From NCBI RefSeq assembly GCF_024502345.1, contig NZ_JALDNN010000001.1: a DNA stretch of 64,000 bases; one strand, written 5' to 3'. Under the pieces are notes generated by a model that did not search any database, was not told the DNA's origin, and saw nothing but the letters and a program-made list of their open reading frames with translations. Below, one piece after another: positions 60,654 through 60,766 of this stretch. The position numbers and the translations under genes were made by a program. Numbering within the stretch: the stretch's first letter is position 1; each line of letters opens with the position of its first letter. The stretch comes from Escherichia coli. Lineage in GTDB: Bacteria; Pseudomonadota; Gammaproteobacteria; Enterobacterales; Enterobacteriaceae.

Positions 60654-60766
60654 TGCCGGATAAGGCATTTTACGCCGCATCCTGTGCCTGATGCGACGCT
60701 GGCGCGTCTTATCAGGCCTACAAACCGAGCCGTAGGCCTGATAAGGCGTTTACGCCGCATCCGGCA
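60654..60766. repeat. BIME: cluster of three REP elements between nrdB and nrdA
   Basis: Three REP copies in alternating orientation: gccggataaggcattttacgccgcatcc; gcctgatgcgacgctggcgcgtcttatcaggcctac; gtaggcctgataaggcgtttacgccgcatccggca. Confidence 0.85.

Follow-up and report, generated by a model that had tools for sequence, protein, structure and literature searches.

What do the REP elements inside two operons of Escherichia coli, in the nrdA–nrdB and nuoL–nuoM spacers, do for the genes that surround them? Intra-operon REPs are held to stabilise the mRNA upstream of them and to adjust relative expression, and those in the nrdA–nrdB spacer have been known since the operon was first sequenced. 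We have analysed both spacers in a 64,000-nt stretch of E. coli DNA (the window), in which 601 nt around the nrd cluster are 100% identical to strain C 236-04A (O125ac:H10). A sequence-only reading of this stretch had called the elements typical and of low novelty, and rightly so: the REPs at both sites are long-known and ordinary, real but not new. By themselves they add little. Their value, which is modest, lies in the context of the spacers: those of two essential or central operons are occupied by different repeat families in different strains, and in about a hundred species a strong hairpin is retained between nrdA and nrdB.

Identity of the repeats

The hallmarks of a REP are an imperfect palindrome of 30–40 nt, a 5′ GTAG, an AA/GC bulge and a high-copy, extragenic distribution (PMC8266576, PMC3333891), the AA/GC mismatch in the stem being described in PMC8266576. 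An imperfect palindrome able to form a stem-loop is present in all three units of the nrd cluster and in the nuoL–nuoM REP, and in all four the bulge takes the form of GATAAG opposite CGCATC. GTAG is found in unit 2 (on the minus strand), in unit 3 (60732–60735) and in the nuoL–nuoM REP (16234–16237) and is absent from unit 1. The units also align with REPs elsewhere in the genome, so that the comparison with the family came out positive. The alternating orientation that had been described for the three nrd units (+, −, +) is confirmed by the inverted repeats and by a regex scan; the description of three units holds less well, unit 1 being degenerate. Having lost GTAG and part of the outer stem, it is a copy in truncated form and falls short of a full unit. 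The single REP reported between nuoL and nuoM at 16234–16272 is indeed there and is canonical (Table 1).

Counts of REP motifs over the window agree with this. The REP tail 14-mer CTTATCMGGCCTAC, with up to two mismatches allowed, occurs 5 times in the 64-kb window where 0.39 occurrences are expected, and none of 100 shuffled sequences reached 5; the three best matches are units 2 and 3 and the nuoL–nuoM unit. The head motif gives 5 matches against 0.66 expected, and the only two exact ones are units 2 and 3. A strict regular expression requiring GTAG plus the palindrome finds only three canonical REPs in the whole 64 kb, and these are again unit 2, unit 3 and the nuoL–nuoM REP. Across 5,425 E. 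coli genomes searched by megablast, the nrd cluster has matches at a median of 16–17 places per genome. The nuoL–nuoM 46-mer (blastn, with no more than 40 pieces counted per record) has matches at a median of at least 34 places per genome, with no annotated feature under the best matches listed. The K-12 annotation (NC_000913.3) holds no REP feature at the nrd locus and lists only nrdA, yoaM and nrdB there.

Rfam contains no general REP family, and its naRNA4 model (RF02564) was built from the y/z2 pair of REP325. This model matches 60654–60718 over its full length (model positions 1–77 of 77) with 53.7 bits and E = 4e-9. As the score is below the gathering threshold of 59.5, we do not count the cluster among the naRNA4 sRNAs; the match surfaces under an E-value threshold, and at the gathering threshold Rfam gives the nuoG RNA alone. 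Two further matches to the model lie inside the nrd cluster, and the nuoL–nuoM REP matches it weakly, at 19.7 bits. The naRNA4 match shows that REP pairs of common ancestry are involved; it does not make the cluster part of that sRNA gene family.

The degenerate state of unit 1 is the one point that speaks for the units being chance palindromes that merely resemble REPs. With motif counts far above the shuffled expectation, tens of near-identical copies per genome and a match to naRNA4 at E = 4e-9, the odds against that explanation are overwhelming, and it was rejected on the shuffle statistics, the genomic copy number and the naRNA4 match. The repeats at both sites belong to the REP family of E. 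coli. They lie inside operons, as had been claimed, and those in the nrd operon form a cluster of the BIME type with alternating units.

Organisation of the two spacers

Since nrdA and nrdB are both on the minus strand, the sense of the nrd mRNA is the reverse complement of the window. The REPs of both spacers are transcribed within the operon mRNAs, in which they are predicted to form stable stem-loops.

Table 1 Positions in the window of the genes, repeat units and signals at the nrd and nuo loci
Feature	Position	Strand	Basis
nuoL–nuoM solitary REP, GTAGGTCGGATAAGCTGCCTTCGCGGCGCATCCGAC	16234–16272	+	Canonical; GTAG first in nuo mRNA sense
REP-like hairpin with GTAG, GTAGGCCAGATAATACGCGTAAGCGTCGTATCTGGCG	59197–59233	+	Motif match; fold −18.4 kcal/mol
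nrdB	59499–60629	−	Annotated in 100%-identical RefSeq record
nrdB Shine–Dalgarno AGGA (60640–60637) and start codon (60629–60627)	60627–60640	−	Sequence, annotation
yoaM-equivalent small ORF, 11 residues	60628–60663	+	K-12 annotation b4779, translation
nrdA–nrdB spacer, 145 nt	60630–60774	genes on −	Between nrdA stop and nrdB start
REP unit 1, truncated z-type, TGCCGGATAAGGCATTTTACGCCGCATCCTG	60654–60684	+	Sequence, direct repeat
REP unit 2, y-type, TGCCTGATGCGACGCTGGCGCGTCTTATCAGGCCTAC on + strand, GTAGGCCTGATAAGACGCGCCAGCGTCGCATCAGGCA on − strand	60685–60721	−	GTAG first on − strand
Tail-to-tail linker, 10 nt, AAACCGAGCC on + strand	60722–60731		Inverted-repeat arms 10 nt apart
REP unit 3, z-type, GTAGGCCTGATAAGGCGTTTACGCCGCATCCGGCAT	60732–60767	+	GTAG first on + strand
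nrdA stop codon UGA	60775–60777	−	ORF and annotated record
nrdA	60775–63060	−	ORF; annotated in 100%-identical RefSeq record

Read in the direction of transcription, the nrd cluster begins 8 nt (60767–60774) past the nrdA stop codon, the intervening mRNA being UAUUGAGA. The first hairpin in the mRNA is unit 3, which lies in the iREP orientation; its layout is GTAG followed by GCCTGATAAGGCG, TTTA and CGCCGCATCCGGC, and its predicted folding energy is −15.1 kcal/mol. Unit 2, the y identity of which is clear (GCCTGATGCGACGC...GCGTCTTATCAGGCCTAC), is predicted to form the strongest single hairpin of the nrd mRNA (−21.9 kcal/mol). Unit 1 has TTAATGCC in place of GTAG and a mutated outer stem (CATCCTG), and its hairpin is predicted at −11.8 kcal/mol. 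Units 1 and 3 are direct copies that have the exact 14-mer TTTACGCCGCATCC in common, 80 nt apart, and units 2 and 3 are tail-to-tail inverted copies, complementary at 94% over 17 nt. Folded together as one long REPIN-like hairpin, units 3 and 2 give a predicted −53.0 kcal/mol; the RNA of the whole spacer folds at −73.5 kcal/mol (z = −6.2). The Shine–Dalgarno sequence and AUG of nrdB follow the last REP at a distance of 13–24 nt, and the predicted fold leaves both of them free of pairing.

At position 60739, in unit 3, the window has T where K-12 has G, which breaks one pair of the unit's own stem and weakens it. The same T gives unit 3 a complementarity of 17–20 bp with unit 2 and perfects the pairing of the tails, a pattern which suggests sequence exchange between the adjacent inverted units.

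In the 163-nt nuoL–nuoM spacer, the REP lies 38 nt after the nuoL stop codon (16193–16195) and 86 nt before the nuoM ATG (16359). Its hairpin is predicted at −20.0 kcal/mol and the fold of the spacer RNA at −56.4 kcal/mol (z = −3.1). Two more small hairpins are found on the plus strand downstream of the REP, at 16289–16310 and 16322–16339, the second of which (GGTCCTGACGGGACT) is followed by TTTT.

Relation to known repeat families

The nrd cluster has the features of E. coli REP/BIME-2 elements, that is, GTAG, an imperfect palindrome of 30–40 nt, the AA/GC bulge and an extragenic location, together with a y and a z-type unit in inverse orientation, a short linker and a tandem copy number that varies between strains. 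It differs from BIME-2 in that the pair is present in no more than 1.5 copies in the window allele, the third unit being truncated. BIME-2 is defined by a y and a z2 REP in inverse orientation, and the z-type partner in the nrd cluster was assigned to z only, not to z1 or z2. BIME-1 elements have a long, IHF-binding L linker and BIME-2 elements a short S linker (PMC3333891). At 10 nt, the nrd linker is of the short S type and too short for the IHF-binding linker of BIME-1. Because of this linker, the y and z-type partners and the tandem copies in other strains, we class the cluster, from its sequence, as a short-linker, BIME-2-like element (BIME-2 or one of the atypical BIMEs) and not as BIME-1.

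Likenesses to other systems are more partial. The REP325/naRNA4 array of the yjdM–yjdN operon is, like the nrd cluster, an intra-operon array of y/z REP pairs, but has six repeats as against 1.5 pairs. With its first REP 8 nt after the nrdA stop, the nrd cluster falls within the 15-nt limit of the stop-codon-proximal REPs, whereas the nuoL–nuoM REP, at 38 nt, is outside this class. Units 3 and 2 form an inverted doublet that could fold into one long hairpin in the manner of REPINs, which are inverted REP doublets mobilised by RAYT/TnpA-REP. What that transposase requires of the sequence for binding and cleavage (GTAG plus bulge) is found in units 2 and 3 as well as in the nuoL–nuoM REP. The window holds no gene for the REP-associated transposase. 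The boxC-like and ERIC/IRU-like elements resemble REPs as GC-rich, hairpin-forming dispersed repeats, and they occupy the same two spacers in other E. coli strains; they are unrelated to REPs in sequence and absent from the window.

Variation within E. coli

Several alleles of the nrdA–nrdB spacer were found, and they differ by whole units of about 80–96 nt: one REP gives a length of 65 nt, the three REPs of the window 145 nt and the five of K-12 233 nt, and alleles of 226 and 241 nt also occur. The 65-nt allele is what remains of the window allele when exactly 80 nt, those separating the two direct 14-mers, are taken out. Among 59 chromosomes sampled evenly down the match ranking, the five-REP form (226–241 nt) was the spacer in 24 genomes, with one further case of 233 nt partly aligned, and the three-REP form (145–146 nt) was that of 12. 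An 88-nt spacer without a REP was found in 18, a 189-nt allele with different REPs in three, and the one-REP form (65 nt) in a single genome.

In place of any REP, the 88-nt spacer carries CCCTCTCCCC-TTGC-GGGAGAGGGTTAGGGTGAGGGG, and it is the allele of 1,684 of 5,426 complete genomes (31%). Its hairpin appears to be boxC-like, and copies of the core are found between genes at a median of 7 places per genome. In some of the genomes with this allele, the flanks are 100% identical to those of the window. Every E. coli nrd allele examined keeps a strong hairpin, whether supplied by a REP or by boxC.

The nuoL–nuoM spacer with the REP is present in 4,698 of 5,423 genomes, and an unrelated spacer of 230 nt without a REP is found in 724 (13%), O157:H7 among them. 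The central 118 nt of this longer spacer recur at ~4 places per genome at 77–79% identity; this repeat appears to be ERIC/IRU-like. Since the nrd spacer is highly variable (1, 3 or 5 REPs, or boxC-like) and ~13% of genomes have no REP between nuoL and nuoM, the exact element is dispensable at both sites. The nrd copy number would change by gain or loss of whole units between repeats, and the REPs themselves may be selfish or domesticated repeats spread by a REP-associated transposase. Variation of BIME copy number between strains is a general property, with BIME-2 changing by whole units (PMC3333891).

The nrdA–nrdB spacer across species

A scan of species-representative genomes with a pattern for the nrdB start gave 120 loci, from 105 of which the nrdA–nrdB spacer was extracted, all of them in Enterobacterales or Pasteurellaceae. 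The length of the spacer ranges from 42 to ~330 nt. The shortest spacers (Pantoea, Kosakonia, Cedecea, Buttiauxella and Rodentibacter) hold one GC-rich hairpin, followed in most by a run of T. Lying 2–15 nt after the nrdA stop, this hairpin looks like an intrinsic terminator.

Repeats were classed by exact GTAG-flank motifs; a 7-mer with one mismatch over-called REPs. Defined in this way, GTAG-flanked REP doublets of the type of the species are present in 45 of the 105 spacers and boxC-like elements in 12. Terminator-like hairpins, counted by a criterion of our own, are present in 24–28 of the 105. The standard terminator scan missed the clear hairpin GGGCGGG-GAAA-CCCGCCC-TTTTTTT of locus L014, likely because it took part of the T-run as stem. 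A terminator-like hairpin is accompanied by a repeat in Siccibacter (L031, L088) and in Cedecea sulfonylureivorans (L040), and E. albertii has a five-REP array like that of K-12.

In predicted folding the spacers are well ahead of shuffled sequences. The median fold z-score of the 105 nrdA–nrdB spacers is −3.86, with 96% of them below −2, as against a median of −1.03 and 31% below −2 for control co-directional spacers of 40–260 nt from the same loci; pairing sets in at a median distance of 4 nt from the nrdA stop. The Mann–Whitney p for this comparison overstates independence because the species are related. Even so, the difference is a large one, and the sequence families behind it are unrelated. 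This suggests that selection keeps a hairpin at the 3′ end of nrdA, with REPs as one interchangeable means of supplying it.

A few Pasteurellaceae (Rodentibacter and Haemophilus; L109, L052, L016, L122) have AT-rich spacers of 285–881 nt. These appear to hold an inserted small ORF, which in L109 starts MECNKGHQYAELL.

Probable function of the spacer hairpins

We consider it probable, at roughly 0.7, that the REPs act at the RNA level as modulators of the nrd and nuo operon mRNAs. Their hairpins would block 3′-to-5′ exonucleases, so that the upstream cistron is protected, and may partly attenuate read-through into the downstream cistron. REP325 in yjdMN has been described as both a stabiliser and a partial Rho-dependent terminator, and the effects of REPs as dependent on context, with half-lives not uniformly changed (bioRxiv 10.64898/2026.03.23.713779). 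According to PMC12306157, a REP within 15 nt of a stop codon stalls terminating ribosomes and lowers translation (Liang, Rudd and Deutscher 2015, summarised there), and the nrdAB transcript is named in that paper as a reported case of such control. Given its position 8 nt after the nrdA stop, the nrd cluster can therefore also hinder terminating ribosomes, by which it may lower the output of NrdA. Exonuclease block, attenuation and ribosome stalling can thus all be envisaged for the nrd cluster. The nuoL–nuoM REP, at 38 nt from the stop, cannot be expected to stall ribosomes, and for it we envisage exonuclease block and attenuation only.

A terminator scan of the transcribed strand found no terminator-like site with a U-tract in either spacer. 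Likewise no promoter-like site was found in the nrd or the nuoL–nuoM spacer, and an internal promoter for nrdB or nuoM was rejected for this reason. A search of the literature on nrdA with REPs and on Term-seq mapping of 3′ ends gave nothing useful.

The REPs might also be neutral selfish DNA at sites that tolerate insertion, with no selected effect on nrd or nuo expression. The decay of unit 1, which has lost GTAG and part of its stem, would fit such a history, as would the extensive polymorphism in presence and copy number among genomes whose flanking genes are near-identical and the general variability of REP/BIME elements between strains (PMC3333891). Neutrality does not, however, account for the strong hairpin that almost every nrdA–nrdB spacer in the 105 species keeps just after the stop, even in species without repeats, nor for its retention, as REP or boxC, in every E. 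coli allele examined, and we think it rather unlikely, though not to be dismissed lightly. A further reading is a role at the level of DNA, in which the y/z pair would be a BIME-2-type site bound and cleaved by DNA gyrase (or DNA polymerase I) to relieve transcription-driven supercoiling in operons that are long or heavily transcribed. Gyrase cleavage of BIME-2 is reported (Espeli and Boccard 1997, cited in PMC3333891), and the architecture of the nrd cluster, in which a short linker joins a y to a z-type REP and the copies are in tandem in other strains, fits BIME-2. The nuoL–nuoM site, however, is a lone REP rather than a BIME-2, the nrd site is devoid of REPs in 31% of E. coli genomes, and the species in which a simple terminator-like hairpin takes that position favour a role for the RNA; a gyrase site is thus quite improbable as the explanation.

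It has further to be considered whether the main role of the cluster is to terminate, or to provide the 3′ end of, an antisense yoaM transcript that has its start within nrdB and extends into the REPs. A start site for antisense transcription 174 nt upstream of yoaM and translation of a yoaM-lacZ fusion have been reported (bioRxiv 10.1101/511675), the window has an intact yoaM ORF, and REP hairpins fold on both strands. On the other side, the yoaM ATG of the boxC-type allele opens a different frame, of 44 codons with an unrelated tail, so that YoaM is not conserved within E. coli, and neither the nuoL–nuoM REP nor the hairpin found across species is explained by an antisense transcript. We give this explanation very little weight. 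As to its position, the yoaM ORF overlaps the nrdB start, and its last codons as well as its stop codon lie inside unit 1.

Within the RNA-level reading, a more far-reaching proposal can be made for the nrd operon, namely that a stable hairpin a few nucleotides past the nrdA stop is a conserved device that sets the ratio of NrdA to NrdB, the two subunits of ribonucleotide reductase. An ancestral terminator-like hairpin would have been replaced repeatedly, at this very position, by unrelated mobile repeats (REP/BIME, boxC), and E. coli strains with different natural alleles (1, 3 or 5 REPs, or boxC) would then inherit a different NrdA:NrdB output and, through it, a different supply of dNTPs. 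The proposal is drawn from the proportion of structured spacers (96% of the 105 species against 31% of controls) and from Siccibacter and Cedecea, which we read as intermediate states; in this full form it is speculative, and we regard it as unlikely. The replacement series itself at nrdA–nrdB, from terminator-like hairpin to REP and boxC, is the only angle that is novel here, and it is mildly so. With its varied repeat occupancy and the hairpin that is kept, this spacer therefore offers a convenient natural allelic series in which to ask whether REPs, boxC elements and plain terminator hairpins can stand in for one another as tuners of subunit stoichiometry.

Other elements in the window

Two further structured elements were found in the window. 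The Rfam nuoG RNA (RF01748), at 9185–9227 on the plus strand, matches with 50.3 bits, above its gathering score, and is the only family matched at the gathering level. The REP-like hairpin at 59197–59233 is flanked by inaA and yfaE, which converge on it; the nrdAB-yfaE operon has its 3′ end here. The hairpin is separated from the stop codon of inaA by 5 nt and from that of yfaE by 11 nt, within the 15-nt limit for both genes.
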